Shown piece by piece: positions 1-32,996 of a stretch of DNA of 32,996 nucleotides. The stretch is taken from positions 1-32,996 of the forward strand of contig CAXTTL010000024.1 of NCBI GenBank assembly GCA_964247135.1, in the 5' to 3' direction. The notes under the pieces are model-generated. The model ran no database searches and was not told where the DNA came from. It saw only the letters and a list, made by a program, of their open reading frames with translations. Source of the stretch: an uncultured Deinococcales bacterium (lineage in GTDB: Bacteria; Deinococcota; Deinococci; Deinococcales; JAAFIG01). The position numbers and the translations under genes are program-made. How positions within the stretch are numbered: position 1 is the stretch's first letter; each line of letters opens with the position of its first letter.

Positions 1-856
1 CTTTGACCGCAGGTGTCACCGATTTGGCTCGAGAGGTCATGACCCCCAAACGACGGATTAAAGGGTCTGGAAGCGGAAAACTGATCACACCGTTGGGCAG
101 CGGATGCACCGCCAATGCAGGCATGATGCTAAATCCCAAACCATGATTGACCATCGAGACAACCACACCGTCATCACCGACGTTAAAGGCTGGCTCGAGT
201 TCTTGATTGATCTCATGAAGATGGGCTTGAAGTTGCTTGCCGCAAGAACTGAGATTGCGGATAAATGGCGTGGCACGAAGCTCCGTCCAACTTGGTGTAA
301 GGCTGCGTTTATCGTCTTTCCAGACCACAACGTATTCGTCTCGAGCAATTTCCCATTCGAGCAATTCTGGTGGGGCGGCTTGCATCAATTGTACAAGTCC
401 AATGTCGGCAGTGCCATCCAAAACACTGACCGGAATCAGTTCATCGCCACCGTCATAATCGAGCAATTCAAATTGAACTCCTGGATGCTCGAGTTGAAAA
501 TCCCGAATCACGCCTGGCAGCACGTGCGATCCCAAACTGCGAATCGTGGCAATTTTGAGGGTCACTTTCAAACCGTCCCGCTCGAGTTGCGCCTCTTGCT
601 CGAGGGCTTCGATGGCGCTTAAAGCATTTCTGGCATGACTGAGAATTCGCATTCCAAACGGCGTGGGTTTCGCACCTTGCCGTCCGCGCTCAAGCACCCG
701 TTTGCCAAGAATATGCTCGAGTTCGACAATGGCGTGCGAGAGCGTGGATTGCGATTGGTTTAACTCGAGCGCCGCCTCGGAATAACTGCCCGTCTCGCAG
801 ATTTTTAAGAGCGTTCTGAGTTGTGAAATGGTGACTCGAGCATCACTGAGAATCAT
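1..856 (-). CDS. LysR-family transcriptional regulator (3' end runs off the window)
   Basis: Manual translation from ATG 856: MILSDARVTISQLRTLLKICETGSYSEAALELNQSQSTLSHAIVELEHILGKRVLERGRQGAKPTPFG, a typical LysR helix-turn-helix. It is absent from the ORF track, consistent with no stop before base 1. Confidence 0.93.
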   Translation of the reverse strand, partial: MILSDARVTISQLRTLLKICETGSYSEAALELNQSQSTLSHAIVELEHILGKRVLERGRQGAKPTPFGMRILSHARNALSAIEALEQEAQLERDGLKVTLKIATIRSLGSHVLPGVIRDFQLEHPGVQFELLDYDGGDELIPVSVLDGTADIGLVQLMQAAPPELLEWEIARDEYVVVWKDDKRSLTPSWTELRATPFIRNLSSCGKQLQAHLHEINQELEPAFNVGDDGVVVSMVNHGLGFSIMPALAVHPLPNGVISFPLPDPLIRRLGVMTSRAKSVTPAVK

Positions 857-890
857 GGTTTCATCATTCAACAACAAGTTTAAAAATTCT

Positions 891-905
891 ATCGAATCCC
901 TGCAT
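891..905. promoter_or_regulatory. Possible LysR T-N11-A recognition box
   Basis: ATCGAATCCCTGCAT (T892-N11-A904) lies between the divergent LysR gene and ORF 989. The motif has low information content. Confidence 0.3.
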
Positions 906-988
906 ACATACCGCATTCTACCGCCCGAAAATCAATTGTTGTTCGCGCCGCTCGAGCCTAAACTTTATTCAAGAAAGCGAGGCACAAC

Positions 989-1216
989 ATGATTTCAGCA
1001 ACGCAGAACGTCTATCTCGAGGTGGTCGGTGAGGCAAATGAGGCGGCTTTCAAAAGCGCTTTTGGCAATCTTGAAGCTCAGGTTTTACCGTATGCCAGAC
1101 TCGGTGATTTTACGCTCCAGGTTTCAATTTGCGCGGATGCGATCAAACAAATGGTGTTTAAAGATGTGAAAGTGCAACTCGAGCAACTTGGTTTTACGGT
1201 GCTCGGGGCGCACTAA
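989..1216 (+). CDS. Small hypothetical protein, possible ferredoxin-like (HMA/ACT-type) fold without CxxC
   Basis: GAGG RBS upstream, TAAACT -10-like hexamer at 959-964, divergent from LysR; C-terminus LEQLGFTV resembles HMA-domain ends. Confidence 0.7.
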   Translation: MISATQNVYLEVVGEANEAAFKSAFGNLEAQVLPYARLGDFTLQVSICADAIKQMVFKDVKVQLEQLGFTVLGAH

Positions 1217-1250
1217 ATTTGGGGTTTCATCTGTTCTCAGTTTTGGCACG

Positions 1251-1256
1251 TAAACT
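1251..1256 (+). promoter_or_regulatory. -10 box of a probable leaderless promoter
   Basis: TAAACT followed by exactly 6 nt and then ATG 1263; no Shine-Dalgarno sequence. Confidence 0.6.
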
Positions 1257-1262
1257 ACAGCA

Positions 1263-1643: not shown

Positions 1644-1693
1644 ACCATTTGAACTTCGGTTTTTGGCGTTCTGTCTCGAGGTTTTCTCGAGGA
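1616..1693 (+). promoter_or_regulatory. mRNA hairpin covering the RAPP codons and approaching the ycnI RBS
   Basis: AGTTCAA 1631-37 pairs with TTGAACT 1649-55; CGCCA 1624-28 with TGGCG 1664-68; TCCTCGAG 1616-23 with CTCGAGGA 1686-93. Confidence 0.6.
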
Positions 1694-1707
1694 TTTAAGG
1701 GGTTTTG

Positions 1708-2606: not shown

Positions 2607-2617
2607 AAGGAGCAATC

Positions 2618-3058: not shown

Positions 3059-3101
3059 GACATTCCTCGAGAAATTTTAACGTTATGCTGAATTGGATTT
3101 G

Positions 3102-8138: not shown

Positions 8139-8981
8139 ATGAAGCTTAAAAACATCCTCTGGAACATAACAAAACGCCTCGCCTCGGCTGGCATTGCAAG
8201 TCCAGAATCCGATGCGTCTTGGTTACTCGAGGCGGTTTTGAACGTGAGTTACGGCGATTTGTTGTTGATGTCCGAAACAAAATTAACGAACGCCCAACTC
8301 GAGCAACTTGAGGGTTTTGCCTTGCGTCGTGAGGCTCGAGAACCCGTGCAATGGATCATCGGGTACACCGAGTTTTACGGATTGAAAATACAAACTCAGA
8401 TTGGGGTTTTGATCCCACGTCCAGAGACTGAAAGGTTGGTCGAATTGGTGCTCGAGAGACTGCCAAACATGCCAGTCAAGGTCGTGGACATCGGCACTGG
8501 CACGGGCGCAATCGCTTTGGCGTTAAAAGCCGAACGCCCAAACTTTGAGCTTCTGGCAACCGACATCAACCCAACCGCGCTCGAGTTGACCCGCCAGAAT
8601 GCAAGCAATTTAAAACTCGAGCTTGAAACCATGCAAACCTCGATTTTGGACGGCATTGATCTGATGTTTGACGCGATTGTTTCCAACCCGCCGTACTTGC
8701 CAGCGAGCGACGATGGAACGCTGGATATTGAAGTTCAACTCGAGCCAAGAGAAGCTCTTTTTGGCGGCGCTGACGGCTTAAAACTGGCTCGAGAGATTGT
8801 GATTGCTGCTCGAGATAAGCTTAAACCTGGCGGTTTGTTGGCGCTCGAACTTGACCCGCGAAACGCCGCAACACTGGCAAACGAACTCGAGCTTTCAGAT
8901 TGGCAAGACGTGAGGCTAGCGGCTGATTTGGTCGGGCGTGAACGATTTGTGTTGGCACGCCGTAAGCTAGGGCATGAATGA
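8139..8981 (+). CDS. prmC: Release factor glutamine methyltransferase
   Basis: REPVQWIIG, VLIPRPETE, DIGTGTGAIA and SNPPY motifs. Confidence 0.96.
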   Translation: MKLKNILWNITKRLASAGIASPESDASWLLEAVLNVSYGDLLLMSETKLTNAQLEQLEGFALRREAREPVQWIIGYTEFYGLKIQTQIGVLIPRPETERLVELVLERLPNMPVKVVDIGTGTGAIALALKAERPNFELLATDINPTALELTRQNASNLKLELETMQTSILDGIDLMFDAIVSNPPYLPASDDGTLDIEVQLEPREALFGGADGLKLAREIVIAARDKLKPGGLLALELDPRNAATLANELELSDWQDVRLAADLVGRERFVLARRKLGHE

Positions 8982-9420: not shown

Positions 9421-9619
9421 GTTGTGATTTTTCACCCAGTGCAATCCGAGGCGCTCACGTAGCGTTACAGGATGTTCAAACATTGGGGCATTCAACCCGT
9501 TCAAATTCAAAGAAAGCAGTAAAATAACCTATGTCAGAACCTCGAGCTTTCAACCACCAACGTCTTTGCGCTTCTTCGCAAGCCGTTTCATGTTTTCGCA
9601 CCGTCAAGAAGGAGTCCCT

Positions 9620-11515
9620 GTGAAGCGTTTTCCTCCCGTCAACATCTGGTTGATTGTGCTGGCACTGATTATGGTTGGGGTTCTGATTTCGATCAACGTG
9701 CCACGCAGCAACGTTGATCCGATCAATTTTTCGGTTTTTATTGATTCGGTCAGCAAAAATGAAGTAAGGAGCGTCCACATCAACACCGAGGGCGCGAACG
9801 TGATGCTGAGCGGCGAAATGCAGGACGGTAAAAAATTCAGCACCGCCACCACGATCACCGACAACTGGAGCAGCCCGAGTTTCTTAAAGGACAAAGGCAT
9901 CAAAAATGTTGACGTGGACAACGGGCAAGGCATGAACTGGCTCAACATTGTCTTTAACCTGCTGCCAATCATTGCCACCGTCGGTCTGATGTGGTTTTTG
10001 TTGCGCGGGATGCGCGGCGGTCAAGACGGCGCGATGAGTTTTGCCAAATCCAAAGCTCGAATTGTGCCGGAAGGCGCTCCCAAAACCACCTTTAAAGACG
10101 TGGCGGGTTGCGACGAAGCCAAAGAGGAACTGACCGAGATCGTGGATTTTTTAAAAAACCCCGCCCGTTTTCACGACATCGGCGCGAGAATCCCTCACGG
10201 TTGCCTGCTGGTCGGACCTCCTGGAAGCGGCAAAACCTTGCTGGCAAAAGCCGTGGCAGGCGAGGCTCGAGTGCCATTCTTCACGATTTCGGGCAGTGAT
10301 TTTGTTGAAATGTTCGTCGGTGTCGGCGCGGCAAGGGTTCGTGATCTCTTCGAGCAAGCCCGCAAAGCCGCGCCCTGCATTGTTTTTATTGACGAGATCG
10401 ACGCCGTCGGTCGCAAGCGCGGCAGCGGACTCGGCGGCGGCAACGACGAACGCGAGCAAACCCTCAATCAATTGCTTGTGGAAATGGACGGCTTTGAAAC
10501 CAAACACGACATCATCATTCTGGCAGCCACCAACCGCCCAGACGTGCTCGACGCCGCGCTCTTGCGCCCAGGTCGCTTTGACCGTCAAACCGTGGTTGAC
10601 GCGCCCGACGTGAAGGGACGCGAGGAAATCTTGCGCGTTCACAGCCGCAAAAAGCCGCTCGAGGAAAACGTAGACCTCAAAGTGATTGCGCGTCGTACCC
10701 CAGGCATGGTCGGGGCTGACCTCGAGAATTTGTTGAACGAAGCCGCCTTGCTTGCTGCTCGAGGTGGACGCCGCAAGGTCAGTTTGCGCGACCTGGACGA
10801 AGCCGCAGACCGTGTGACGATGGGACCCGCCAGAAAGTCTCGAGTGATTAACGACGCCGACAAGCGCATCACGGCGTACCACGAGGTCGGTCACGCGCTG
10901 GCGGCAAACCTCTTGCCGATGGCAGATCGAGTTCATAAGTTAACAATCGTCCCTCGAGGCAACGCTGCTGGTTTTATGATGCCCATGCCAGGCGAGCAAA
11001 TGCACTACTCGAAAAAACGCTTACTTGACCGCATCGCCGTGGCGCTGGCGGGTCGTGCCGCCGAAGAACTCGAGTTTGGCGATGTCACCACGGGCGCTCA
11101 AAACGACTTTCAACAGGCGACCAACATCGCCCGCAAGATGGTCGCCGAATGGGGCATGAGCGACAACCTTGGGCACGTCGCGTTGGTCGAAGAGCAACAA
11201 AATTACTTGGGTTACGGCGGCGAAGTTCGCCATTACAGCGAAGAAACCGCCCGCATGATTGACTCTGAAGTCAAAGGCATCGTCGAGGAACAATTCACCC
11301 GCGTGCGCTTGCTGCTCGAGGAACACCGCGAAGACATGGATCGGGTCGTGCGCGAATTGTTAACCCGAGAAACTTTAAGCGGTGAGGATTTCCAAACGCT
11401 GCTCGAGGGTGGCGAACTGCCCGAAGATGAAACGCCGCGCCGCGAACCACCAAAGGAAAAACCAGAACCAGGGTTTATGCCGCCAACGGTATTGCCAAAA
11501 CCAGGACGGGCATAA
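9620..11515 (+). CDS. ftsH: ATP-dependent zinc metalloprotease FtsH
   Basis: Two TM segments, [23 protein letters not shown] and HEVGH motifs; AAGGAG RBS before GTG 9620. Confidence 0.98.
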
Positions 11516-13314: not shown

Positions 13315-13468
13315 GGTTTCCTTTATCGCTTGGTAAGAATGTAATGAGTATGCAATCACCAAGCGAGAGAGAATAACCCAGACTCCCCCGATAATCAAGT
13401 CAAAATTCCGCTTCTCGAGCTTCAAAATACAGTTTCAATACGAGTTTCTCGAGTTTGGCAAATCAAAA

Positions 13469-20076: not shown

Positions 20077-20151
20077 AGAAAAAGCACTTGTCTCTCGATC
20101 TCTCAAGCACAAAAAGCTTTTTTCTACTCTCGAGAACGGATGCTCCTGACG

Positions 20152-21822
20152 TCAGCGAAACGCACTCGCCCAAATTTGAGGTCCTGACAGATCAAAGACC
20201 GCGATGGCGTTACCCGCAGCATCAAAGGCAACTTGGTATGCGGTCACGCTATTGCTGGATACATTGGAACCAATGTCTGAGACTTTTACCGTATCTCCCC
20301 AACCAGTGTCTGTCGTGTAGCGCTTCGCCATAAGACCCCCATTAAGACCCCACGTGGCGATGGCATTACCATTGGCATCAACGGCAATCCGAGGGTCAAA
20401 ACCCTTTTGGGAACTGACGGTCTGGAGTACTTGGGGGGTACCCCAACCTTGCCCGAGAGGGTTGGTGTTTGTCCATATTTCTATGGCAGATGTTGTTAAA
20501 TTCTCCTGTATCCAGACCGCGATGGCGTTGCCGCCCGCATCAAGGGCAACCCTGCCAGTGTAGCTTTGTTTCGCATTTTCGGTCTTGATCGGCTGGGCTG
20601 TTCCCCAGCCACCCGAGGGCGTGTAGCGATTTGCCCAGACGTGATACGTGCCTTGGTTGCCAACCACAACAGATTGATTCCAGACCGCCATGACGTTACC
20701 GCTGGCATCGGCTGAAATGTCGGGTGTGTTCGCCTCGGATAACTCGTTTTCGATGGGGAATGCCACGTCCCAACCCGAAGTGGGTCTGTAAATATTTGCC
20801 CAAATGCTGTCATCAAAACCCCAGACCCCTTCGGATTGTATCCAAACCACGTGGGCGTTGCCTTGTGAGTCCATTACCACTTTGGGATTGTTGGCGGTGC
20901 CCTTGTTGTTGGTTTCGATCAACTCGGGGGTTGCCCAGCCTGTGCTTGGCGAGTACGAGTTTGCCCAGATGTTGGCTCGAGTACCATCATTTTGCGCCCA
21001 AACCGCGACGGCGCTGCCGCTTGGACTCATGGCGATCACTTGGTTTACGGCGTTGCGAATGGGTTCGGAATCTATTTCCTGGGCTTGACTCCAGCCGCTC
21101 AAAGGGGTGTAGCGACTGGCGAAGATGTCGCTGCGTGCGCTTACAGCATCCGTTTGACCCCAGACCACAATGGCGTGACCCATCTGATCGAGGGCGACTT
21201 GGGGAGCGTTGCGGTATTTTGGAGTTTGGGTTTCTACCTGCTGGGCGGTCCCCCAACCGGTCCCTGGCGTGTAGCGGTTTGCCCAGATGTGAGATTCTGT
21301 CGCGGTTGATTCAACCCAGACCGCCACGGCATTGCCGTCCTTGTCCATCGCAATCTGGGGTCCTTGGTGGCTCAAAGAACTTTTGTCGTCGATCTGCTCG
21401 ATGTTCTGCCAGGTTCCATCACGGGTCGTAAAATTCCAACTCGAGCCGGCGAAGGAATTGCCCGCCAGGTCGGTCAGTCCAGTCCCCAGGGTTGCCGTAT
21501 AGCTGGTTCTCAGGTTGAGGGTGGGATGCTCGAGATTGATGACATTACCGTTAGCGATGGAGGTGATGGGAACGGTTTTGTTGTCCTTGAGTTGCTTCAG
21601 TGTGACGTTCACACCAACTGTGGCTGCTGAAAGTGCCTCACTGAAGGTTGCCGAAATTGGACTGGAAATATCCACCAATTTTGCATCCTGCAACGGAACA
21701 GTCGCGCTGAGCGTGGGGGCGGTGGTATCCGAACTCGAGCCACCTGTACCATTGCATCCGATTAAAACCGTAACCAAGAGACTTAACACTGTGGTTCGCG
21801 CAATTGTCGCCATTGTTTTCAT
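20152..21822 (-). CDS. Lipoprotein with Ig-like (Big_5-type) domain and ~49-aa repeats (probable beta-propeller)
   Basis: Lipobox LIGC; DTTAPT...ATFSE...LTDLAGN...WNFTT; recurring DxxGNAxAVW...WANRYTPxxGW units. Confidence 0.85.
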   Translation of the reverse strand: MKTMATIARTTVLSLLVTVLIGCNGTGGSSSDTTAPTLSATVPLQDAKLVDISSPISATFSEALSAATVGVNVTLKQLKDNKTVPITSIANGNVINLEHPTLNLRTSYTATLGTGLTDLAGNSFAGSSWNFTTRDGTWQNIEQIDDKSSLSHQGPQIAMDKDGNAVAVWVESTATESHIWANRYTPGTGWGTAQQVETQTPKYRNAPQVALDQMGHAIVVWGQTDAVSARSDIFASRYTPLSGWSQAQEIDSEPIRNAVNQVIAMSPSGSAVAVWAQNDGTRANIWANSYSPSTGWATPELIETNNKGTANNPKVVMDSQGNAHVVWIQSEGVWGFDDSIWANIYRPTSGWDVAFPIENELSEANTPDISADASGNVMAVWNQSVVVGNQGTYHVWANRYTPSGGWGTAQPIKTENAKQSYTGRVALDAGGNAIAVWIQENLTTSAIEIWTNTNPLGQGWGTPQVLQTVSSQKGFDPRIAVDANGNAIATWGLNGGLMAKRYTTDTGWGDTVKVSDIGSNVSSNSVTAYQVAFDAAGNAIAVFDLSGPQIWASAFR

Positions 21823-23171: not shown

Positions 23172-24926
23172 ATGACTCAGGCGAACGCCACTTCCGACAC
23201 GGAACTCGAGGCTTTGCTTGAGCAGTTTGATGCCCTGATTGACCGTCAACCAGTTGATGCCCTGGGGTTGGCACAATCGGCGCTTTCGTTGGTAAAGACC
23301 GAACTCGAGCGCGGCAAGGTGTTGGTGCGCCTGGGTTGGGCACAGCGGGTGCTCTCCAAACTTCATGACGCCGAACTCCATAACACCGAGGCGCTAGCGA
23401 TTTTTGAGCGTTTGAACGACCTCGAGCATCACAGTTTGGCGCTGATTTTGGCTGGAACGATTGATGTTTTCACGGGGCATCGTGAACGGGCGTACCGGCA
23501 TCTGATCTTGGCGCTCGAGCAAAGCCGCGCGATTGGGCACCGCTTGTACGAGGCGCGGGCGTGCAATGCCTTGGGGGCATTGTTTGATTGGTACAGCAAC
23601 CCCAGTGTGGCGCTCGAATATTTGCTCGAGGCATTGCGTTTGATGCGTGAATTGGATGAGGTGATGCTCGAGAACATGACCTTATCGAACATCGGCGCAA
23701 TTTATTTCCGTCAAGGCGAGTACCAGAAGGCGCTGGAGTGCTATCACGAGGCTTTGGAAAACTTGCGTGATTTGAACGCTGGCACTTTGGTGGGCATCAC
23801 ACAGCTCAATATTGCTGAGAGTTTGATCAAGTTGGATCGGGCGGCGGACGCCGAGGCACTCTTACATTTTGCGCTTTTTGATACGCGTGCCAGCAAGCAC
23901 GTGGCGGCAGAAGTTTTTGCCCTGCGGACTTTGGGCGTTGCACAATTGGCACAACACAAGCTCGAGGCTGCCTTTGAGCAGTTCCAAGCGGCGTTAACCC
24001 TGGCAAACGAACACGAATTGTTCGAGGAGGCAGGCTTGGCAAATTTGGGCTGTGGGCAGGTCTTGTTGGCGCTGGGACGCGATGCCCAAGCCCTTATTGC
24101 GCTGACCAATGCCTCGTCAAGCTTGCAAGAGAGCAGCGCCGAGAATCAACTCGAGTTGTACCAAGCCTTGGTGAAAACCTACGAGCGACTCGGTGATTTT
24201 AAGGCGGCGCTCACGGTACAACGTCAATTTTCGGCGCTTGAGGGTCAGTACCGTGAAACCAACTCGCAACGTTACGTGCAAAGTCTCATGCTGCGTTTTG
24301 AACTGGCGCAAATGAAACAACAAACAGCCGTGACGCTCGAGCGCAACCGCGATTTGCAAGTCCTGGTGCAAGAAAAAGAGCGCTTGAGCGCCGAACTCGA
24401 GCGCCTGAGTTTGCAAGACCCGCTGACGGGTTTGTTCAACCGCAGGTATTTGGATTTGCATTTTCCCGAGTTGCTCGAGGTCTTCGGGGCGCGTCAAAGC
24501 CAGGTGGCGGTCGCCATGATCGACATCGATTTTTTCAAAACCGTCAACGATCAGTTTTCGCATTTGATTGGCGATGCGGTCTTGCGCCAAATTGGCGCGT
24601 TGTTGCAGCAAAACCTGCGACCGAGCGACATTGCCACGCGTTACGGCGGCGAAGAATTTTTGATTATTTTTCCTGGCGCGACGCTGGACGTGGCACACCT
24701 GCGCTGCGAGCAACTGCGGGCGGAGATTGAGCAATTTGATTGGCAACGCATTCACGCGCAGTTGCGGGTCACCATCAGCATTGGCTTGGTGGTTTCTCAG
24801 CCTTTTGAGAGCGTTCTGCACGTGCTCTCTCGAGCCGATGAATTACTTTACGCGGCAAAAACGGCTGGGCGCAACCGTGTGATCTCGAGCACTGCAGCTT
24901 TGAACGCTGGCAGAAATTTGCATTAA
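23172..24926 (+). CDS. TPR-containing diguanylate cyclase
   Basis: TPR repeats, DPLTGLFNRR, DIDFFKTVND, RPSD I-site and RYGGEEF active site. Confidence 0.94.
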   Translation: MTQANATSDTELEALLEQFDALIDRQPVDALGLAQSALSLVKTELERGKVLVRLGWAQRVLSKLHDAELHNTEALAIFERLNDLEHHSLALILAGTIDVFTGHRERAYRHLILALEQSRAIGHRLYEARACNALGALFDWYSNPSVALEYLLEALRLMRELDEVMLENMTLSNIGAIYFRQGEYQKALECYHEALENLRDLNAGTLVGITQLNIAESLIKLDRAADAEALLHFALFDTRASKHVAAEVFALRTLGVAQLAQHKLEAAFEQFQAALTLANEHELFEEAGLANLGCGQVLLALGRDAQALIALTNASSSLQESSAENQLELYQALVKTYERLGDFKAALTVQRQFSALEGQYRETNSQRYVQSLMLRFELAQMKQQTAVTLERNRDLQVLVQEKERLSAELERLSLQDPLTGLFNRRYLDLHFPELLEVFGARQSQVAVAMIDIDFFKTVNDQFSHLIGDAVLRQIGALLQQNLRPSDIATRYGGEEFLIIFPGATLDVAHLRCEQLRAEIEQFDWQRIHAQLRVTISIGLVVSQPFESVLHVLSRADELLYAAKTAGRNRVISSTAALNAGRNLH

Positions 24927-27751
24927 ACGCCTCGCAATGCCGCCGCCAATTCGTGCTCCTCGAGCTTCAAGATCACGCCGTGGACCAAAAACGTGATCCG
25001 AACTTCGGGTGAAAGTTCTGGTTTGGCAAGTTTGATGGCTTCGCGGTACAGCGCCAGTTGACGGTGGTACGCCCGAACCCGTTGCGGCAGCGCCTCGTCT
25101 GGTACATCGTCGGTTTTGAAATCCTCGAGAATCCAAGTGCCATTTGGTTCTTGGTACAAACGGTCGATCAAGCCCTGCCAGGTCGTGCCGTTGCGAGAAA
25201 AAGCAAACGGCAATTCCGCAAAATCTTGCGGGCGCTCACTTCGGTCTGGATAGAGGGCATGGTATCTCGAGACAAGCCACCAGGCACGCTCGAGCATGGT
25301 TTGACGCTCCGAATCCGAGTACGGATGCAGGAGGTACTGGGCGGCAAGCACTTGCTGATGTCGAAGGTTGTGGGCTTCGAGGTTTTCGGCAATCGCATAA
25401 TGCGTCAATGTGCCGATCACACGGTCTGATTCTGGAATGCCCATAAATTCCGTCTCGAGCGCGGCGTTTGGGACTTCATCTGGGATTTCGGTGTCGAGTT
25501 CGCTGATGTCGGCAAGTTCTGGGTCAAGCGGTGTGCCACTGGCTTCTGGGGCTTTGCTTGGGGCGCGAACGCGGCGGGCGGGTCGGGCAAATCTGGCTTT
25601 GGCAAGATCAACATCGGCACTAAACCGAGGCTCGAGGATGATGGGCGCAGGCATTTCGGCGGTTTCAAAAACGTTGACCTCGTGGTGCAAAACTTCAATC
25701 CCTGGCATTCCGTCGGGTTTCTCGAGCAACTGTAATTTATTTAAAAGCGTATCCAGCCAAGCCCGAGGTTTGTTGGTGGTTGATCCAGTCATGATAAGAC
25801 GGTCTTTGGCGCGGGTCAGGGCAACGTACAAAAGTCGGTTGCTCTCCCCTTCCGAACGGCGTTTGAGGTGCTCGAGAATGCTGGCATACCGCGTGGCGGT
25901 CAAGCCTTTTTTGGCTCGGGCATTGGGCTTGAGGGCAACTTCACCGTCTGGGTGTACCACCAAATCTGGGCGTTGCGGGTTCTCGCCTCGAGCCAGGTCA
26001 AAGACTGCCGTCACCGGAAACTCGAGTCCCTTGCTGGAATGCACGGTCAAGAGTCGCACGGCGTCGCCCGCCTCGAGCGGTTCGTCGCTTTCGGCTTCAC
26101 TCAACCTGGCACGTTCGAGGAAGCTGAGGGCGGCTCGAGGGTCGCGTAAGCCCCGAGCGGCGAGTTGATAGAGCAGCCCGTCGAGGTTGGCGGTGGCTTG
26201 ACGGTTGACGGCGAGCACGCTGTAACCCAAGAAAACCCAGGCATCTTCGAGCAAAGTCACAGCATCTTTGGCGTCACGGACAATCTCGAGCAGTTCTCGC
26301 AGACGCAAAGTTTCGGGGGCGGATGATTTGCGCAAACCGATGCGAATGTCGTTTTCATTCCGCAAAATTTCCTCGAGATGTTGAAGCGGCAAGTCAATGC
26401 CTGGAATCCTCGAGAGTGCGGAGAGTGCAAACGCAAATTCTGGGGCATCGGGAGCAACGAGCCGCGCCCGCAGCAGCGTGATCGCGTCGCGGATTTCACG
26501 GCGGTCATAATATTTTTGTCCTGCCACCATCAGCATGGGCACAGCCTCGAGCGCCAGGGCAAGCTCGAGCGGCGGCAGGGATGTTCTCGAGCGCACGAGT
26601 ACAGCCATGTCGTGCCAGGGCGTGCCAGATCGGTTGAGTTCACACAATCTTCGCGCCAGAAAAGCAGCTTCGGCGTGGCGTCCAGCCTCGAGGCTGGCGG
26701 CTTGAAAAACGTGCAGTTCGACTCGAGGTTCAAAACCGTCTTCGGGTTTGATGCGCCCTGGTTTGACCTCGCTGGGCAAACCGATTTCGGAAAATTCTGG
26801 GAAGAGCTTCGCGGAGAGGCTTGAGTAAAACGCGCTGAGGGACACACCGTGCCTGTAGGTGGTGGTCAGTGGCGCGAGGGTTTTGGCGCGTTGATAGACG
26901 TCCAAAAAGGCATTCACGTCGGCGTCCCGAAAGGCGTAAATACTCTGCTTGGGATCACCGACCAGCAGCACGCGCTCGAGGTTTAAACTCTGAAAAATCT
27001 TGGCTTGCAACGGGTTGACATCCTGAAATTCATCGACCAGCAAGACCGAAACCCGAGACCTGACGCGCTCGAGCATGTTGGGATCGCAGAGCAATTCCAG
27101 GGTTCTCAGTTCGACATCGGTGGGCGCGAGCGCTCGAGATGCCAGCCGCGACAGGTACAAATTCAAACTGCTTTCAAAGGCTGCCAGCAACGACACCGTG
27201 AGCGCATCGGGTTGGATGCCATCCTCGAGATTTCCAGATCGAAACGGGGCGTAAACGCGTTTGTTGTGTAACGCCTCGAGTGCAGATAATGTACGTTCCC
27301 AACCGAGCGTTGCCAAGGCTTCACCGCCGGGCGCGTCGCGCAACGCCGCCTGTGCCAGGACGCTCGAGGCGGCGTCCCTGAACGTCTCGAGGGATTCGCT
27401 TTCGTCGAGGTTGCTGAATTCTGGGTCGAGGTTGAGCGCGGGAGCGTTTAAACGCAGCAACTCGCGGAAAAAACCGTGAATTGTCGTGATGCTGGCACTG
27501 CCAAGTTCACGCAACGCCACGCGGTACAACTCGAGGTTGGCGGGTTTAAAATTCAGATAACTGCCGTGCAGCACCACCTCGCGCAGACCGGCGCGAAGCC
27601 GTTCGCGCAAATCGATTGCCCCAACCCGAGTGAACGTCACCGCCGCAATCCGCCGAGCCGGTGTAAACCGCAACGCCATCAGGTACTCGAGCACCAAACT
27701 GGTGGTTTTACCCGTTCCAGCCGAAGCCGAACGTACCTCGAGGTTGGTCAT
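24923..27751 (-). CDS. addA: AddA-like UvrD helicase with RecB-type nuclease
   Basis: ASAGTGKT, VTFT, VDEFQD, VGDPKQSIYAFR, TVHSSKGLEF, LLYVALTRAK, and GLIDRL...EDFKT...QLALY; ATGA overlap with addB. Confidence 0.85.
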   Translation of the reverse strand: MTNLEVRSASAGTGKTTSLVLEYLMALRFTPARRIAAVTFTRVGAIDLRERLRAGLREVVLHGSYLNFKPANLELYRVALRELGSASITTIHGFFRELLRLNAPALNLDPEFSNLDESESLETFRDAASSVLAQAALRDAPGGEALATLGWERTLSALEALHNKRVYAPFRSGNLEDGIQPDALTVSLLAAFESSLNLYLSRLASRALAPTDVELRTLELLCDPNMLERVRSRVSVLLVDEFQDVNPLQAKIFQSLNLERVLLVGDPKQSIYAFRDADVNAFLDVYQRAKTLAPLTTTYRHGVSLSAFYSSLSAKLFPEFSEIGLPSEVKPGRIKPEDGFEPRVELHVFQAASLEAGRHAEAAFLARRLCELNRSGTPWHDMAVLVRSRTSLPPLELALALEAVPMLMVAGQKYYDRREIRDAITLLRARLVAPDAPEFAFALSALSRIPGIDLPLQHLEEILRNENDIRIGLRKSSAPETLRLRELLEIVRDAKDAVTLLEDAWVFLGYSVLAVNRQATANLDGLLYQLAARGLRDPRAALSFLERARLSEAESDEPLEAGDAVRLLTVHSSKGLEFPVTAVFDLARGENPQRPDLVVHPDGEVALKPNARAKKGLTATRYASILEHLKRRSEGESNRLLYVALTRAKDRLIMTGSTTNKPRAWLDTLLNKLQLLEKPDGMPGIEVLHHEVNVFETAEMPAPIILEPRFSADVDLAKARFARPARRVRAPSKAPEASGTPLDPELADISELDTEIPDEVPNAALETEFMGIPESDRVIGTLTHYAIAENLEAHNLRHQQVLAAQYLLHPYSDSERQTMLERAWWLVSRYHALYPDRSERPQDFAELPFAFSRNGTTWQGLIDRLYQEPNGTWILEDFKTDDVPDEALPQRVRAYHRQLALYREAIKLAKPELSPEVRITFLVHGVILKLEEHELAAALRGV

Positions 27752-30555
27752 ATCGCTTCCCGACACACATCGCGGTACGAACAATAACGGCAGTGAAAAC
27801 CGCTCGAGGCTGAAATACTGCCCTCTTGCAAGGTTTGATTGGCTTTTTCCAGGGCGGTCATGGATTGTGCCAGACGACGTTGCGCGTAAGGCTTATCAAA
27901 ACCCATCACGCGTTTCGGGGCGTGGTTCAAATCCCAAGCCCAAAGCACCACAGGCACGTTTTGCTCGAGCCAGTGGTTGGCGTACCACCATTCGCGGTGT
28001 CGGGTATCAGACATGTACTCGTCGTAAGCATCGTCGAGGTTTTTCACGACGCGGTACACCTCAACCATTCTGACCTTGCCGCTCGGGTCTTGCCGAATGC
28101 GCACCCCGTCCAGCACAAACTCGAGGTCGTCAATGATTGCGCGGTATCCGAGTTGAATGTCGCTGGCATCGGGACGGCTTGGCACATTTTCTTGCACCGT
28201 CTGCTCGAGTTGCGCCCTGAACTTCGGCGCGAGGTTTGCCAGCGTCGCGCGGTGCGCTTCGGGGGCGACCTCGGACAGATTCTTGCCCTTGTTCTGCCAC
28301 AAATTATTGCGTTGCGCCCTCGTCCAACCCTCGAGCAATTCACCAGAAACCAAACCCGCACCCCTGGCGGGCGCGGGAATCAAACCCTCCGCCCAAGCTT
28401 TGAGCGCACAGACCGCCACCCGCTCGAGTTCGGTGGCTTTGCGAGCCACCCGCACCGAAACTTGATGAACCGAATCTTGAGGCTGGTGAAGATTGGCATT
28501 GAGCGCCGCAAGCTCGAGCGGTGAAGCCGTTGGAAAAACCCGTTTTTGACCGTGCTGCTCGAGTTGCGACAATCTCGGATGCGGTCGGAGGCTCGAGCCT
28601 CGCTCTGCTCTGGCATACGACACGACCAGCAGTTCATCGGCTCGGGTGAAAGCATCATAAAGCTGGGAATCCTCGAGACCATTTAACCTGAACGGAAGTC
28701 GGGCTTCGGTGGTTTGAAGCTCGAGGGTTGGTTCGTCGAGGTCGAGGTCTTGTCCACCCTCATCCCCGACCCTTCTCCCCCCTAGGGAGAAGGGAGTTTT
28801 GGTTATTTCTTGTGTGGCTGAAATATTTTGATTTGATACCTCGAGATTTTCAATTTGATGTAGGGGCGAACCTTCTTGATTCCAAGACGCACCTTCGGGC
28901 GGAATCGCTTGTGTTCGCCCATCACCTCCATTCGGTATCTCGGGATTCCCAATTTCAAGATTTTCTTGCACGAGATTCATTGGAACCTCGAGATTTACCA
29001 GCAATTCCTCGAGTTTGCTGCGTTGTTCTTCTGGAACAAAAAAATCTTCGCCATCACCCGTTTTGTACGCGCCGTCGGTTGCGCCCATCACGAAACTGAT
29101 CTTAAAGCGCCTGCCGCTGGCTTCTTCGGCACTGAGTACCGCCACGCCGCGTCCAAGGTCTTCATGGGCGACGGTGACGCTGGCGAGCAGGCTTTGCACC
29201 CAGTCGGTGAAGACCGCACCTTCGACCTGGGCTTGGTTGCCGAGGATGCGGGCGGCTTCTCGGGCGATCACTTTGGCGGTGTCGCAAAAACTGGCGTCTT
29301 TGAAGTGACGCTCGAGCAGGGTTTCAAACCAGTGAATCAATTGCTCGCTCGAGGCGTGCTGCGGTGGTTGCGCAATCTGTTTGATACGCTCGAGGGCAGC
29401 GAGGGCGTTTGGATCGTCGCAGACCAGGGCGTAAGCGTCCAGTCCGGCGGCAATGCCGTTTTGCTCGAGTTTTTCTGCCAGCAGCAGGACATCGGGTTCG
29501 AGCGCGGCGAGGGTTCGCAGATCGCGGGCTGGGTAATCTCGGGCGGGGGCGCGGAGCAACGCCTCGAGTTGCCGCCCGTTGGGGGTCTCGAGGATTGAGC
29601 CGCTGGTTTCTGGGGCGATGGGCACGCCGTATTCGCGTCCCAATGCCTCGAGCACCCGAGCGATGGCGGGGTGCGGGATGATGATGCAAATGTCTTGACT
29701 CGGCGTGCCGTTTTGAAGGCGTTGTTTGATTTCGCGCAGCACCCCTCGAGCCTCCTCGACGGGGTTGGCGTAGGTCTCCAAACGCGTGATTTTGGGCATT
29801 CCAGCCCAGGGTTTGCCTTTGGCGTTCAAGTACCTGATTTTGGCGTTGAAGGCGGTAGCAATTTGCTCGAGTTCTGGTTTGCGAAGTGGGTGCGCCCAGG
29901 CTTCAGAATGCGTGTCGGGCAAGCCTGAGGGTAGGGTCACGAGGGTGCTTTTGGCGAGGCTGGCGAGGGCGCAGAATATCCGCAATTCGCTGGGGTTGAA
30001 ACTTCGGTAGCCGTCAACGATCAAATGCGCATTCAAGGCTTGCGGGTTGGTGGTTAAAAGTTGCGCGGTGCGAATCCGAACGTCGTCGAGGTCTTGCAAC
30101 ACGCCAAGCTCGAGTTCGGTTTGATAGGCGTGAAACACCTGAAACAAAATATGCTGGTACGCCTCTTCAGACCCGAGGGGCGCGACCAGGTTGCGTTTGA
30201 ATTCGGCGATAGCCCTGGCATAAAGCCTCGCCTCGCCAGGGTTGACGTTGCGTTTTAATATTTTCTCGAGCACCCGTGCCGTTAATGCCACGCGCCCAGG
30301 ATTCAGCACAATCGCGCGGTTTTCGCCCAGACGATCCAGCACGCGGTAGGCAATGTTTTGCAGGTTCGTGACTTCGACGCCCAAACTCGCACCCGCACTT
30401 GCCAGTCGCTCGAGCCAGCCTGAACGCTGCCCTGGCAGGGTCAGCACAATGACCCGCTCCCCCGCCGTCGCCAACTCGAGCGCCCGAGCGACGGCAGCGC
30501 CGGTTTTGCCGCTGGCGGCGGGTCCAGTCAAAAGTTGTGCGCTCGCCGTGGTCAC
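27748..30555 (-). CDS. addB: AddB-like partner subunit (inactive helicase fold, Fe-S cysteines, degenerate nuclease)
   Basis: N-terminal GPAASGKT, LYDAFTRA, Cys in VCALK plus terminal CRYCSYRDVC; translationally coupled to addA. Confidence 0.78.
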   Translation of the reverse strand: MTTASAQLLTGPAASGKTGAAVARALELATAGERVIVLTLPGQRSGWLERLASAGASLGVEVTNLQNIAYRVLDRLGENRAIVLNPGRVALTARVLEKILKRNVNPGEARLYARAIAEFKRNLVAPLGSEEAYQHILFQVFHAYQTELELGVLQDLDDVRIRTAQLLTTNPQALNAHLIVDGYRSFNPSELRIFCALASLAKSTLVTLPSGLPDTHSEAWAHPLRKPELEQIATAFNAKIRYLNAKGKPWAGMPKITRLETYANPVEEARGVLREIKQRLQNGTPSQDICIIIPHPAIARVLEALGREYGVPIAPETSGSILETPNGRQLEALLRAPARDYPARDLRTLAALEPDVLLLAEKLEQNGIAAGLDAYALVCDDPNALAALERIKQIAQPPQHASSEQLIHWFETLLERHFKDASFCDTAKVIAREAARILGNQAQVEGAVFTDWVQSLLASVTVAHEDLGRGVAVLSAEEASGRRFKISFVMGATDGAYKTGDGEDFFVPEEQRSKLEELLVNLEVPMNLVQENLEIGNPEIPNGGDGRTQAIPPEGASWNQEGSPLHQIENLEVSNQNISATQEITKTPFSLGGRRVGDEGGQDLDLDEPTLELQTTEARLPFRLNGLEDSQLYDAFTRADELLVVSYARAERGSSLRPHPRLSQLEQHGQKRVFPTASPLELAALNANLHQPQDSVHQVSVRVARKATELERVAVCALKAWAEGLIPAPARGAGLVSGELLEGWTRAQRNNLWQNKGKNLSEVAPEAHRATLANLAPKFRAQLEQTVQENVPSRPDASDIQLGYRAIIDDLEFVLDGVRIRQDPSGKVRMVEVYRVVKNLDDAYDEYMSDTRHREWWYANHWLEQNVPVVLWAWDLNHAPKRVMGFDKPYAQRRLAQSMTALEKANQTLQEGSISASSGFHCRYCSYRDVCREAI
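28756..28800 (+). repeat. ~45-nt palindromic dispersed repeat, copy 3, inside addB coding sequence
   Basis: ACCCTCATCCCCGA-CCCTTCTCCC-cccta-GGGAGAAGGG-AGTTTT; translated as KTPFSLGGRRVGDEG on the minus strand. Confidence 0.85.
28860..28920 (+). repeat. GTAG-type REP-like palindrome interrupted by a 36-nt micro-element (28872-28907), inside addB
   Basis: GTAG-GGGCGAAC[36 nt]CTTGT-GTTCGCCC; the insert matches the outer halves at 6687-6707 and 6784-6798 at 34/36 nt. Confidence 0.8.
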
Positions 30556-30561
30556 TGGCTT

Positions 30562-30570
30562 AGGCTATCA
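30562..30570 (-). promoter_or_regulatory. Extended -10 box of a probable leaderless addBA promoter
   Basis: Minus strand reads TGa-TAGCCT-aagcca-GTG(30555); the TG is part of the deaminase stop codon. Confidence 0.5.
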
Positions 30571-31056
30571 CTCCCAGAAATCGGCGTGAACGGCTGATGC
30601 CTCAATCTCGAGCGCGGGTCCGAGGATTTCGATGTTGCGTTGTCCTCGGGCGAGCACCTCGCGGCATTCGAGGTGCATGGTTGGATTCTCAGTGTTTGCG
30701 CCAGTCATCTCGTAGAGTTTGAATTCCGAAAGGGCGTAGACCAGCCGCCCCACGCCAGTCCAGTACATCGCCCCAGCGCACATCACGCAAGGTTCGCAAC
30801 TCGAGTACATGGTGCTGGTCGCCAAAATTTCGCTCGAGAATTGCTGGGATGCCAGACGCATTAAATTGGTTTCGGCATGACCGGTGGCGTCTTTGCTGGT
30901 GTTGACCGTGTTTTCGGCTTCGAGCAGCACAGTGCCATCGTGTGATACGAGGATTGCGCCGAAAGGATGGTTGCCGTTTTCCCTGGCGCGGCGCGAGACT
31001 TCGATGGCTTGATGCAAGAATTTCAGATCGGTTTCGGTCACAAGGGTATTATTCAT
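30568..31056 (-). CDS. Zn-dependent nucleoside/nucleobase deaminase (cytidine deaminase fold)
   Basis: PFGAIL, HAE and EPCVMC motifs. Confidence 0.92.
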   Translation of the reverse strand: MNNTLVTETDLKFLHQAIEVSRRARENGNHPFGAILVSHDGTVLLEAENTVNTSKDATGHAETNLMRLASQQFSSEILATSTMYSSCEPCVMCAGAMYWTGVGRLVYALSEFKLYEMTGANTENPTMHLECREVLARGQRNIEILGPALEIEASAVHADFWE

Positions 31057-31084
31057 GCTCGAGCGTCAAAAAGGTAGGTATGCC

Positions 31085-32215
31085 ATGCTTTCATCAGATC
31101 AACAACGTGTCCACCTTCAAAAAGCCGCGCTCGCGCTCGGCTTTGACGCGGCGGCTTGGGTTGGGGCACTTGTGCCAGCTCGGGACATTGGGACGTTTCA
31201 AACTTGGATTGATGCCGGAATGCACGCGGGCATGGATTACTTGCCGCGCAGCGTGGCGCGTCGCAGCGATTTAGGCTCGAGTTTTGCTGGCACAAAAAGC
31301 GTTTTGGTCCTGATGGTGTCGCACAACCACGCCGAACCAGAAAAACCGACTGGCGGAACCCGAGTCGGGCGGGTGGCGCGTTACGCCTGGAGTCGGGATT
31401 ATCACACGGCGTTACAACCATTTTTAAGTGAACTCGAGCGGGCGAGTTTGGGTTTGGGCATTCGGGCGAAAGCCTACGTCGATCACGGTTTGATGCTCGA
31501 GCGCAGCTTGGCATCACGGGCGGGTTTGGGCTGGCGCGGACGCTCGAGTCAGATCATCTCGCAAAGCTTGGGCGCACTCACCACGCTGGCGGTGTTGCTG
31601 ACCGACCTCGAGCCGCCAGAAGAAACCCTCGAGCATCCTGACCGTTGCGGGAAATGCACGGCTTGCGTACAAGATTGCCCGACCAATGCCATCACACCGA
31701 GTCGTTTTGTGGACTCGAGGCGTTGTTTGTCGTATTACACTATCGAACATCGCGGCAGCATTCCGCTCGGGTTTAGAGCCAGCCTGGGAAACCATTTGTT
31801 CGGTTGCGACGATTGCCTGGATGTTTGCCCCTGGACGAATCATGCGGGGCGCTTCTCGGGTTTGTTGACACCCGAACCCGAACTGGCGCACCCCGACCTC
31901 GAGCCTTTTTTTACGCTCTCGAGCAAGCAGTTTGAAAAGCGTTTTGCGGGTACGGCATTTTCCAGGGCGCGGCGCAAAGGCATGGCTCGCAATGCCGCGC
32001 TGGTGCTGGGCAATACCCGAGATTCAACACACGCCAATTTGCTCGAGCTTGGACTGAACGATCTTGGCGCTGAGGTACGTGAAAGTTGCGCCTGGGCATT
32101 GGGGCGATTCAAGCTCGAGCCTCGGGTTGAAACCGCCTTGACTCGGGCTTTGCAAGATTCAGATGTCAGGGTTGCCAGTACCGCTCGAGCAGCCCTCAAC
32201 GGCGAATTTCTGTAG
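31085..32215 (+). CDS. queG: tRNA epoxyqueuosine reductase
   Basis: ARYAWSRDYH, ERSLASRAGLGWRG, CGKCTACVQDCP, CLSYYTIE, GCDDCLDVCPW and C-terminal HEAT repeats; start 31085 preferred to avoid overlap with the divergent gene. Confidence 0.95.
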   Translation: MLSSDQQRVHLQKAALALGFDAAAWVGALVPARDIGTFQTWIDAGMHAGMDYLPRSVARRSDLGSSFAGTKSVLVLMVSHNHAEPEKPTGGTRVGRVARYAWSRDYHTALQPFLSELERASLGLGIRAKAYVDHGLMLERSLASRAGLGWRGRSSQIISQSLGALTTLAVLLTDLEPPEETLEHPDRCGKCTACVQDCPTNAITPSRFVDSRRCLSYYTIEHRGSIPLGFRASLGNHLFGCDDCLDVCPWTNHAGRFSGLLTPEPELAHPDLEPFFTLSSKQFEKRFAGTAFSRARRKGMARNAALVLGNTRDSTHANLLELGLNDLGAEVRESCAWALGRFKLEPRVETALTRALQDSDVRVASTARAALNGEFL

Positions 32216-32294
32216 CATTGCGATCTTTGTTTGAAGAAACTCACATCACACGGTTTAGAATGAAAGCACTCGAGGAGGGTTTCGAGCCTAAATT

Positions 32295-32996
32295 ATGTGG
32301 CGTTTTTTAATCATTTTGGTGTTCTTACTTGCCGCCGGAGCCGGATATTATTCGGGTCTGGTTACGGCTTCGTCTAAATTGGTCACGCCCGACGAGATCA
32401 ACACCGTCCAGATTCAGCAGCGCTCCTTGAAGGCGGTGGTCACGGTCTACGCCAAAATTCCGCCCGAACAGCGTCAACCTGGCGAGGACGAAGAAGCCAT
32501 CGGCACCGGTTTTTTTTACAAACCCAATCTGATCGTGACCAACTTTCATGTGGTGCAAGACGCCTTGAGTTGGCGAATTCAACTGTCTGATGGGCGTTCG
32601 TTCCCTGCCGAACTCGAGTCTATCGATCAGGGCATTGATATTGCGATTTTAAAAGTCACCAAGGTCACCGCGCCTGGGGTGTTGCAATTTGGCAATTCGC
32701 TCGATATTTTGTCGGGTCAAAAAGCCATTGCAATCGGTTCACCTTCGGGCAAGCGCAACAGCGTCTCGGTGGGCGTGGTGCGCAGCTTCGCCCGAATTTC
32801 TGAATTTCCCGACGAGACAGGCACGGAAATTCCAGAGATGCTTCTGACCGACGCGCAGATCAACGCAGGAAACTCTGGCGGTCCGTTGCTGGATTCCAAA
32901 GGCAACGTGATTGCCATCGTCGATGCGTTTTTGGATTCTGGTGTTGCCGCGACCGGCATTGGCTTGACCATTCCCTCCAACCTGGCAAAAGAATCG
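32295..32996 (+). CDS. HtrA/DegP-family (S1C) serine protease, partial
   Basis: Manual translation: MWRFLIILVFLLAAG...GTGFF...VTNFHVV...DIAILKV...INAGNSGGPLLD, giving a complete catalytic triad; runs off the window. Confidence 0.93.
   Translation, partial: MWRFLIILVFLLAAGAGYYSGLVTASSKLVTPDEINTVQIQQRSLKAVVTVYAKIPPEQRQPGEDEEAIGTGFFYKPNLIVTNFHVVQDALSWRIQLSDGRSFPAELESIDQGIDIAILKVTKVTAPGVLQFGNSLDILSGQKAIAIGSPSGKRNSVSVGVVRSFARISEFPDETGTEIPEMLLTDAQINAGNSGGPLLDSKGNVIAIVDAFLDSGVAATGIGLTIPSNLAKES

Follow-up and report, generated by a model that had tools for sequence, protein, structure and literature searches.

CTCGAG as a highly iterated palindrome in an uncultured family of Deinococcales

Why does one six-base palindrome, CTCGAG, crowd a stretch of DNA from an uncultured Deinococcales bacterium, and what keeps it there? 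The stretch analysed here, hereafter the window, is 32,996 bases long and forms the whole of contig C24 in an assembly (G000) of 5.09 Mb in 386 contigs, with a GC content of 52.65% and 84% completeness. A first-pass annotation, made from the letters of the window alone, had described CTCGAG as a word resembling HIP1, the highly iterated palindrome (HIP) of cyanobacteria, about 30-fold over-represented and created or preserved by a process acting across the lineage. The excess turned out to be stronger than claimed, about 37-fold, and the reported 39 sites in the first 4.32 kb are exact, the site list holding 39 up to position 4,298. At 0.49–0.58 GC per 2-kb bin, the window carries 7.5 sites per kb, and in 100 dinucleotide-preserving shuffles the largest count was 15, none reaching the observed number. 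We read CTCGAG as a true HIP of this bacterial family, held near saturation by a fixation bias specific to the word, and we favour molecular drive as the source of that bias; our probability for this reading is about 0.45.

1..32996, no strand: field of CTCGAG sites, a local sample of a genome-wide word (249 sites against 6.67 ± 2.66 after shuffling)

The word is not a peculiarity of this contig. The whole assembly carries 33,925 copies, one per 150 bases (6.7/kb), which makes CTCGAG the top-ranked of all hexamers and bears out the likeness to HIP1; the excess stands against Markov models of order 0, 1 and 2, with observed/expected ratios (O/E) of 24.8, 35.2 and 14.4, and the next palindrome reaches 2.1. 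A fourth-order model brings the genome-wide ratio down to 1.24, because it conditions on pentamers that are mostly made of CTCGAG itself. All 297 contigs of at least 5 kb lie within 2.6–10.5 sites/kb, and just 2 of 1,473 segments of 5 kb hold eight sites or fewer, so that confinement to a single contig, which would have betrayed an artefact, does not apply.

What is iterated is the hexamer alone. Information at the flanking positions never exceeds 0.07 bit, position −1 favouring G (39%) and position −3 favouring A (37%) most strongly, and this rules out a dispersed repeat of the repetitive extragenic palindrome (REP) or miniature inverted-repeat transposable element (MITE) type. Extended palindromes around CTCGAG show no excess over chance, and GCTCGAGC does not rise above the product of its flank frequencies; around sites lying after the ends of open reading frames (ORFs), extra palindromic arms are distributed just as they are genome-wide, which dismisses the word as the centre of longer hairpins or terminator stems. 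As many as 62% of all TCGA tetramers lie inside CTCGAG, TTCGAA (131) and GTCGAC (121) being rare. The one-off variants of the word are near normal (O/E 0.5–1.7), with the exception of CTAGAG at 0.08; CTTGAG/CTCAAG, at 1.17, are not depleted, and the transition variants rank highest, as expected for the decay products of an abundant CTCGAG.

The sites had been placed in all three reading frames and in intergenic DNA, and amino-acid usage had been judged insufficient to explain them; both statements held. Counted in 4,514 ORFs (a crude set, made up of the longest non-overlapping ones with at least 100 codons), the frame CTC|GAG accounts for 17,418 sites (61% of the coding sites, in the Leu-Glu frame), xCT CGA Gxx for 4,556 and xxC TCG AGx for 6,602. 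The density is 6.52/kb in coding and 7.51/kb in non-coding DNA, and it is highest, about doubled at 12.2/kb, in the first 30 bases 3' of ORF ends, among the DNA under least constraint; under Markov models the non-coding O/E is 33–37 at orders 0–1 and drops to 13.4 at order 2 and 2.9 at order 3. A spike at offset +2 after stop codons (176 cases, where the per-position baseline is about 26 and most neighbouring offsets have about 30–70) may reflect a genuine preference or the way ORFs were called. A within-gene shuffle of synonymous codons gives an expectation of 4,016 sites in ORFs, a dinucleotide-preserving shuffle of third positions 10,260 and a shuffle of codon order 1,665; the observed number is 28,532, and the codon-aware shuffles all fall 2.8- to 17-fold short of it. 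The enrichment also persists when codon-pair counts are held fixed, a condition that expresses a dicodon-preserving shuffle analytically: sites in the other two frames still exceed expectation 1.8- to 1.9-fold (4,544 vs. 2,478 and 6,602 vs. 3,525).

The mark left on the proteins is large. Judged from its single codons, the codon pair CTC-GAG should occur 1,070 times; it occurs 17,386 times, and the reverse pair GAG-CTC not once. Of 22,635 Leu-Glu pairs, 76.8% are written CTCGAG in a genome where Leu is encoded by CTC in 24.5% of cases and Glu by GAG in 46.2%, and contexts in which the amino acids permit the word synonymously are filled to 77%, 44% and 46% in the three frames. Among dipeptides, Leu-Glu has an O/E of 2.39 against 1.02 for the reverse Glu-Leu, and Ser-Ser one of 1.63. 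The bias is strong enough to override codon preference and amounts to roughly 13,000 extra Leu-Glu pairs in the proteome.

How the sites come and go was followed in five congeners, which differ by about 15% among themselves and from the window, form a star-like tree and were projected on the window with three to six taxa per position. Sites inferred as ancestral were kept along a terminal branch in 764 of 930 cases (0.822), compared with 0.658 for control hexamers (77,109 observations). Fifty-six positions are held by a single taxon and 72 are missing from a single taxon, so that gains and losses are roughly balanced and near equilibrium. Single steps make up 91 of the 166 losses, and transitions account for 81 of these 91, falling on positions 1/6 in 31 cases, on positions 2/5 in 23 and on the CpG in 27; loss by single transition amounts to 81 per 5,580 position-observations (1.45%) against a background transition rate of 5.56%. 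Neighbours one transition away had turned into CTCGAG in 15 of 113 cases (13.3%), those one transversion away in 2 of 145. The contrast extends to synonymous changes, measured as the share of codons that differ from the congeners where the amino acid is conserved:

CTC codons: 12.6% inside the word, 49.7% elsewhere
GAG codons: 7.7% inside the word, 28.8% elsewhere
TCG codons: 6.8% inside the word, 31.5% elsewhere
CGA codons: 20.9% inside the word, 37.1% elsewhere

Synonymous differences are thus 3- to 4.6-fold fewer inside the word for CTC, GAG and TCG and 1.8-fold fewer for CGA. None of 15 six-base insertions or deletions relative to the congeners is CTCGAG, which rules out insertion of the hexamer as a unit and leaves substitution as its way of spreading. 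CTCGAG is gained faster and lost slower than background, and its sites turn over near equilibrium; with the word enriched in 19 of 19 genomes of the family, the notion of a lineage-wide process that both creates and preserves it is supported.

Neighbouring sites suppress one another. How often Leu-Glu is written as CTCGAG varies with how far away the nearest other site lies: the share is 0.16 at 6–8 bases, 0.45–0.46 at 9–14, 0.57 at 15–17, 0.69 at 18–20 and 0.84–0.86 at 76–250; at more than 500 bases from another site, in atypical genes, it is 0.54. A distance of 6 bases is impossible because GAGCTC would arise, and since the short-range exclusion acts at synonymous positions, protein constraint is no explanation. 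The pair correlation of the sites is 0.14–0.54 below 18 bases, about 0.8–0.9 up to 60 bases and about 1.0–1.08 beyond, and it stays below 1 under about 20 bases in coding DNA and under about 15 bases in non-coding DNA. The spacing as a whole is almost geometric, with a coefficient of variation (CV) of 0.963 against 1.016 for random placement; a 10- to 11-base peak of helical phasing was looked for in the short-range spacing and not found, nor was any longer period at short range. Sites 8 bases apart are few (11 cases vs. 87 at 7 bases and 115 at 9 bases), and GAGNNCTC, rare with 383 copies against 1,723 of GAGNCTC and 1,444 of GAGNNNCTC, may be another avoided target. The exclusion over about 20 bases suggests a protein that would read the palindrome and cover about that much DNA, and such a footprint accounts for it better than uptake, whose effect would lie at the scale of fragments.

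On the other hand, longer stretches without a site are tolerated. In the part of the window covered by the site list, which runs to position 27,368 (49 further sites lie beyond), three stand out:

9547..10265, no strand: about 720 bases without CTCGAG, within the FtsH gene at 9566–11515 on the plus strand (site list)
12489..13413, no strand: about 925 bases without CTCGAG, in the ORF at 12457–13425 on the minus strand, the longest such stretch among the sites listed (to 27,368)
20135..20975, no strand: about 840 bases without CTCGAG, in the 3' part of the ORF at 20152–21822 on the minus strand (site list and ORF list)

The first, in a gene assigned by TIGR01241 (E 2.4e-242), fits a word limited by protein constraint. 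The second may mark a variable or younger gene, because the relative G005 has no DNA aligning to window positions 12375–13459. Conserved genes, FtsH among them, and atypical regions are poorer in CTCGAG.

The distribution of the word was followed through 301 genomes of the order, for which we use codes (f for family, g for genus, G for genome, C for contig and L for locus); one of the 301, G250, is marked as unpublished, and no conclusion depends on it. The family of the window, f1, has five genera, and all 19 of its genomes, including a single-contig chromosome, carry 4.3–6.8 sites/kb. Family f2 is mixed (0.3–2.8/kb). In f5, genera g13 (26 genomes), g22 (4) and g24 (3) have 3,336–18,927 copies of CTCGAG against 278–4,391 of the reversed control GAGCTC, whereas the 32 genomes of genus g9, each about 2.2 Mb, hold 1,455–2,803, similar to the control. 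In f3, each of the 86 genomes of genus g7 has 26–1,010 sites, below the roughly 1,200 per 3.5 Mb estimated for such GC-rich DNA, and this means avoidance; G285 (g56) of the same family, unlike g7, has 13,562. Samples of 18–40 kb from each intermediate lineage (G285, G128, G168 and G147) have 1.7–2.5 sites/kb in non-coding DNA, 47–78% of Leu-Glu written as CTCGAG against 7–22% expected, and a Leu-Glu O/E of 1.2–1.7. The sample from G016 (g9) shows neither the non-coding density nor the Leu-Glu share nor the Leu-Glu excess, and that from G014 (g7) has no site in 40 kb. The weaker lineages show the same kind of enrichment as f1, and it reaches three other families.

Presumably, g7 would be Deinococcus, g9 Thermus and g13 a Meiothermus-like genus. 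Two plasmid samples agree weakly with this: the first 50 kb of Allomeiothermus silvanus pMESIL01 hold 63 copies of CTCGAG (O/E 3.5, top palindrome), and the first 50 kb of Thermus thermophilus HB8 pTT27 hold an unremarkable 45 (O/E 1.7). The samples are small and confined to plasmids.

Which known system does this resemble? HIP1 has, to our knowledge, remained unexplained since the 1990s, and all HIP cases known to us are cyanobacterial. With its alternate HIPs (PMC4390886; PMC5861425) it is, as far as the accessible parts of these papers go, the closest known system to CTCGAG. Both are short GC-rich palindromes, hyper-abundant throughout a lineage, found in coding and non-coding DNA beyond codon use and better conserved than background, in genomes that avoid many other palindromes; CTCGAG shares with the HIPs an outlier abundance, several frames and non-coding DNA with no longer unit, lineage-wide occurrence, and conservation combined with spread by substitution. 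It differs from HIP1 (GCGATCGC) in word and phylum, in being a hexamer at 4,300–6,800 copies/Mb compared with 300–2,700/Mb in the available part of PMC4390886, in the clear short-range exclusion between its sites, and in that no cognate methyltransferase was found here. Its O/E of 25–35 lies below the 55–228 of HIP1 and above Elhai's hexamer outlier, for which the accessible text gives a single figure, 15.5. HIP1 also has, in the part of PMC5861425 available, a periodicity of tens of kilobases; contigs here are too short to compare. We found no literature describing CTCGAG as an iterated palindrome or over-represented word in Deinococcota, the motif tables of methylome surveys lying outside the search, and the string 'Deinococc' does not occur in the portions of the HIP papers PMC4390886, PMC5861425 and PMC13756078 at hand. 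CTCGAG is thus an independent, denser case of the HIP type outside cyanobacteria, in Deinococcota.

A second likeness is to the DNA uptake sequences of Pasteurellaceae and Neisseriaceae (USS/DUS), likewise over-represented genome-wide in all frames, arising by substitution and rarer in atypical genes. Those words are 9–12 bases long and non-palindromic, occur about once per kilobase and are thought to spread by molecular drive. CTCGAG, a six-base palindrome with uninformative flanks at 6.7/kb, does not fall under that definition, and this lineage is not known to take up any DNA preferentially. In the available part of Findlay and Redfield (PMC2817400), however, peptides encoded by uptake sequences are about doubled and control peptides in reverse order are not, and the excess of Leu-Glu without one of Glu-Leu is the same signature.

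Under the explanation that we favour, the word would owe its numbers to a bias in what becomes fixed. New copies arise from point substitutions, mostly transitions of one-off neighbours, copies already in place disappear more slowly than background, and gain and loss balance at about one site per 150 bases. The bias would work on all DNA of the lineage, limited by constraint; sites suppress one another within about 20 bases, the agent being a putative palindrome-reading protein. The drive, proposed by analogy with uptake sequences and with what is now suggested for HIP1, might consist in a biased transmission of CTCGAG alleles through biased DNA uptake, recombination or heteroduplex repair. 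We infer drive rather than a function at each individual site, because the sites turn over, because related lineages form a gradient of density, with a reversal in one genus, and because site-free stretches of up to about 900 bases are tolerated; the proteome signature equal to that of uptake sequences (PMC2817400) and the pointers to transformation in work on HIP1 (PMC13756078; bioRxiv 2024.09.10.611283), each as given in the accessible parts of these sources, speak for the same ranking. A search of five family genomes found ComEC and DprA in all five, evidence that is no more than permissive.

Several points weigh against molecular drive. No agent was found that would read the word, and the profiles of ComEC and DprA also match non-competent control genomes. 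Divergence data cannot separate drive from selection for site density; the gain and loss counts come from one 33-kb window and up to six related genomes, with pooled comparisons that are not independent, and the contrast shrinks when the 75 multi-step losses are counted, to a per-position change of about 5.2% against a background of 9.0%. In every genome sampled, g9 (32 genomes) lacks the enrichment and g7 (86 genomes) avoids the word; both, inferred as Thermus and Deinococcus, are presumably naturally transformable, and if the assignment is right, competence alone is insufficient. Uptake drive alone predicts saturation at the scale of DNA fragments, not of 20 bases, and the spacing is barely more regular than random (CV 0.963 vs. 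1.016).

The alternative that survives best is selection for site density. CTCGAG would then be the binding site of an abundant chromosomal protein, serving nucleoid organisation, segregation or the marking of self DNA, with a site needed every 100–200 bases and individual sites replaceable, hence their turnover. The exclusion over about 20 bases, fitting a protein footprint within which a second site adds nothing, keeps this explanation alive, and the 1.8- to 4.6-fold better conservation of synonymous positions inside the word and the uniform distribution over all contigs are in its favour; for HIP1, selection and a chromosomal role were argued by Xu et al. in the available part of PMC5861425. 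On the other hand, the spacing has no helical or longer period and is near-geometric (CV 0.963), stretches of 700–900 bases without a site are tolerated in the window, and no candidate binding protein was found. A density ranging from 0.3 to 6.8/kb among related lineages, with avoidance in one genus, would also be odd for a core chromosomal function. We regard selected site density as possible, if unlikely.

Methylation-linked repair is the textbook expectation for such words. As in Elhai's model for HIP1, or in a Dcm/Vsr-like manner, a methyltransferase for CTCGAG or TCGA would mark the word and repair would convert near-misses into it. The accessible parts of several sources encourage the idea: cyanobacterial HIPs of high frequency accompany a methyltransferase for the same sequence (PMC4390886), HIP1 boosts transformation in a methylation-dependent way (bioRxiv 2024.09.10.611283; PMC13756078), and a 2026 preprint gives CTCGAG and TCGA as methylated motifs common to one hot-spring group of hosts and viruses, its phylum unnamed. 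CTCGAG methyltransferases are found elsewhere, as an orphan in Nocardia (PMC4752239) and as an m5C enzyme in Halorubrum (PMC8112702). Public sequencing data yielded three runs, all kept as contigs and each containing 0.05–0.07 of the sampled words, which bear on neither habitat nor methylation.

The genome has methyltransferases in plenty. A search with families PF00145, PF01555, PF02086, PF02384 and PF07669, together with a scan of all ORFs for the motifs of exocyclic-amino methyltransferases (14 matches, the only new ones being PrmC and an rRNA-type MTS protein), gave 12 homologues:

D12 methyltransferase beside a SacI-family endonuclease (target GAGCTC, 0 sites)
close homologue of M.PvuII (PDB 1boo, E 1.5e-149; CAGCTG, 15 sites)
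C5 methyltransferase beside an NgoPII-family endonuclease
C5 methyltransferase beside an Eco29kI-family endonuclease (CCGCGG, 11 sites)
N6_N4 methyltransferase beside an MvaI/BcnI-family endonuclease
N6_N4 methyltransferase beside a NotI-family endonuclease
incomplete copy of an N6_N4 methyltransferase, cut by the start of contig C4
two MmeI-like methyltransferases
HsdM-like (type I-like) methyltransferase of 798 aa
very large N6-type methyltransferase of 1,502 aa
SPPY methyltransferase of 466 aa on contig C4, its neighbour a 271-aa protein with no assignment

Six of these adjoin a restriction-enzyme homologue whose family fits an avoided palindrome. Other GC-rich palindromes are indeed mostly near-absent genome-wide, with 0 copies of GAGCTC, 1 of GGGCCC, 3 of CGGCCG and 4 of AGGCCT, followed by CGTACG (5), GGATCC (7), CCGCGG (11) and CAGCTG (15). 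The restriction-modification pairs (SacI, PvuII-like, Eco29kI, NgoPII, MvaI/BcnI and NotI families) lie on contigs C320, C36, C178, C14, C189 and C207; in G008 and G010 the SacI-linked D12 methyltransferase was not found and GAGCTC is higher (568 and 161).

None of the enzymes tested for orthologues is conserved throughout the family, a result read from an 84%-complete genome and for enzymes whose specificity is unreadable from sequence. The PvuII-like enzyme has close matches (74–93% identity) in 2 of 12 other family genomes, plus a 48-residue fragment at a contig end, the NotI-linked methyltransferase occurs in 2 of 12, plus a 43-residue fragment, and the D12 methyltransferase in 5 of 12. 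The SPPY enzyme, sought in five genomes, is a pseudogene in one and has a 25%-identical match in another; the congener copy (G005:C76:182942-184300, L205) is 89% identical and has two in-frame stops. C5 methyltransferases of different genera share 27–36% identity, the 798-aa enzyme and its counterpart in a congener 41%, and the single-contig family genome G011 has no match to PF01555, one to PF00145 and four to PF02384. The XhoI endonuclease family (PF04555) was found in 0 of the 19 f1 genomes and in 7 of the 301 genomes of the order. In one of the seven, G015 of f4, it adjoins an N6_N4 methyltransferase that resembles PDB 2zie from Thermus thermophilus and that has only motif-level matches in f1 and no orthologue there. 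As observations beside these, five f4 genomes with an XhoI-family endonuclease (G015, G028, G041, G097 and G105; loci L092 and L123) keep 0.7–1.8 sites/kb and show no avoidance, and no such endonuclease was found in any of the 95 genomes of f3, the family of g7 and G283, which avoid the word. A search for Vsr (PF03852) found none in G000.

The link to a CTCGAG or TCGA methyltransferase that the first-pass annotation had drawn was therefore not supported by these tests, which found no family-wide orthologue, no XhoI family in 19 genomes and no Vsr and do not amount to showing absence. Most of the 12 homologues either have a restriction-enzyme homologue next to them or belong to the type I-like or MmeI-like forms, the one-off products CTTGAG/CTCAAG show no depletion (O/E 1.17), and CpG transitions are not rarer among the losses (27 vs. 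31 and 23). Methylation-linked repair looks quite improbable to us. In the Escherichia coli case, Dcm methylation of CCWGG and short-patch repair by Vsr turn near-misses into the palindrome, with a small effect and depletion of the words with the T/G product. CTCGAG, unlike CCWGG, has a 25- to 35-fold excess without depletion of CTTGAG/CTCAAG, and with no PF03852 in the genome and C5 enzymes that are divergent and stand beside restriction enzymes, we reject a repair word of the Dcm/Vsr type.

We also reject an XhoI-type restriction target. CTCGAG is the six-base word of XhoI/PaeR7I and of the orphan methyltransferase of Nocardia, where it clusters at the replication origin (PMC4752239), whereas sites here are everywhere. 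Restriction targets are normally avoided; CTCGAG is enriched here, in a family with PF04555 in none of 19 genomes, and avoided in one large genus of the order (26–1,010 sites per genome).

That the word follows from composition or from the use of codons or dipeptides, or is an artefact of assembly or linkers, as the 61% share of the Leu-Glu frame and the near-absorption of the excess by the fourth-order model might suggest, has a vanishing probability and is already refuted by a density that peaks in non-coding DNA, codon-aware shuffles 2.8- to 17-fold short, a reverse codon pair GAG-CTC that never occurs, the presence of the word in 19 of 19 independently assembled family genomes (one of them a single contig) and site positions common to species about 15% diverged.

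Two genes of the window invite a comparison with Chi, and one was a candidate for methylation:

24923..27784, minus strand: AddA-like helicase-nuclease (TIGR02785 addA, E 2.9e-51)
27748..30555, minus strand: AddB-like partner (cross-order presence comparison)
8139..8981, plus strand: PrmC/HemK-type NPPY methyltransferase (motif scan; Pfam PrmC_N and MTS)

Like Chi, CTCGAG is a short over-represented word that would mark self DNA, and the window has an AddA/AddB-like pair. Chi words are asymmetric and strand-biased. The AddB-like gene is present in 17 of 18 genomes of f1, 90 of 96 of f2, 21 of 23 of f4, 65 of 68 of f5 (31 of 32 in g9) and 9 of 95 of f3 (G283, with 109 sites, among them); since it thus occurs in lineages without the enrichment (g9 and G283) and the palindrome has no polarity, we reject a Chi/AddAB reading. 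The PrmC/HemK-type gene was set aside because its substrate is protein release factors, not DNA.

The window also holds a hairpin-forming short dispersed repeat without CTCGAG, at 16836–16882, at 20040–20078 on the other strand and at 28756–28796, with dozens of copies in each of the five congeners. The third of these window copies is part of the AddB-like ORF, in frame, and falls in a segment (residues about 520–612) absent from other genera. Viruses may share the bias in CTCGAG: among the matches listed, 18 of 80 viral loci read lie on contigs with at least 3 sites/kb, all but one at GC 0.63–0.70. Because these loci were selected for three sites within about 100 bases, the very feature at issue, and lack any link to a host, we offer them as a lead only. 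Among the same matches, the GC-rich contigs L234, L246, L243 and L235 combine 3.3–4.9 sites/kb with 0–3 copies of GAGCTC, both traits as in the bacterial lineages.

A broader proposition, which we hold only tentatively and think on balance doubtful, is that HIPs are neither confined to cyanobacteria nor tied to orphan methyltransferases: here would be a second phylum with a different word, no recognisable cognate methyltransferase and rewritten proteins, and the exclusion over 20 bases would be the footprint of a putative word-reading protein that biases recombination, uptake or repair. For practical work, the word can serve as a compositional marker, and a strong one, both in binning and in connecting mobile elements or viruses with these hosts; it also makes cloning or restriction of the XhoI type useless on DNA of this lineage and, having no stop codon in any frame, favours long spurious ORFs. 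With Leu-Glu raised 2.4-fold and three quarters of it written one way, the family shows how far a bias at the level of sequence can run against selection at the level of proteins. Its related lineages span the range from avoidance to one site per 150 bases and so form a natural comparison set for finding the agent; the sister lineages with graded enrichment seem to include cultured, moderately thermophilic genera, and if they do, the origin of such words could be tested at the bench.

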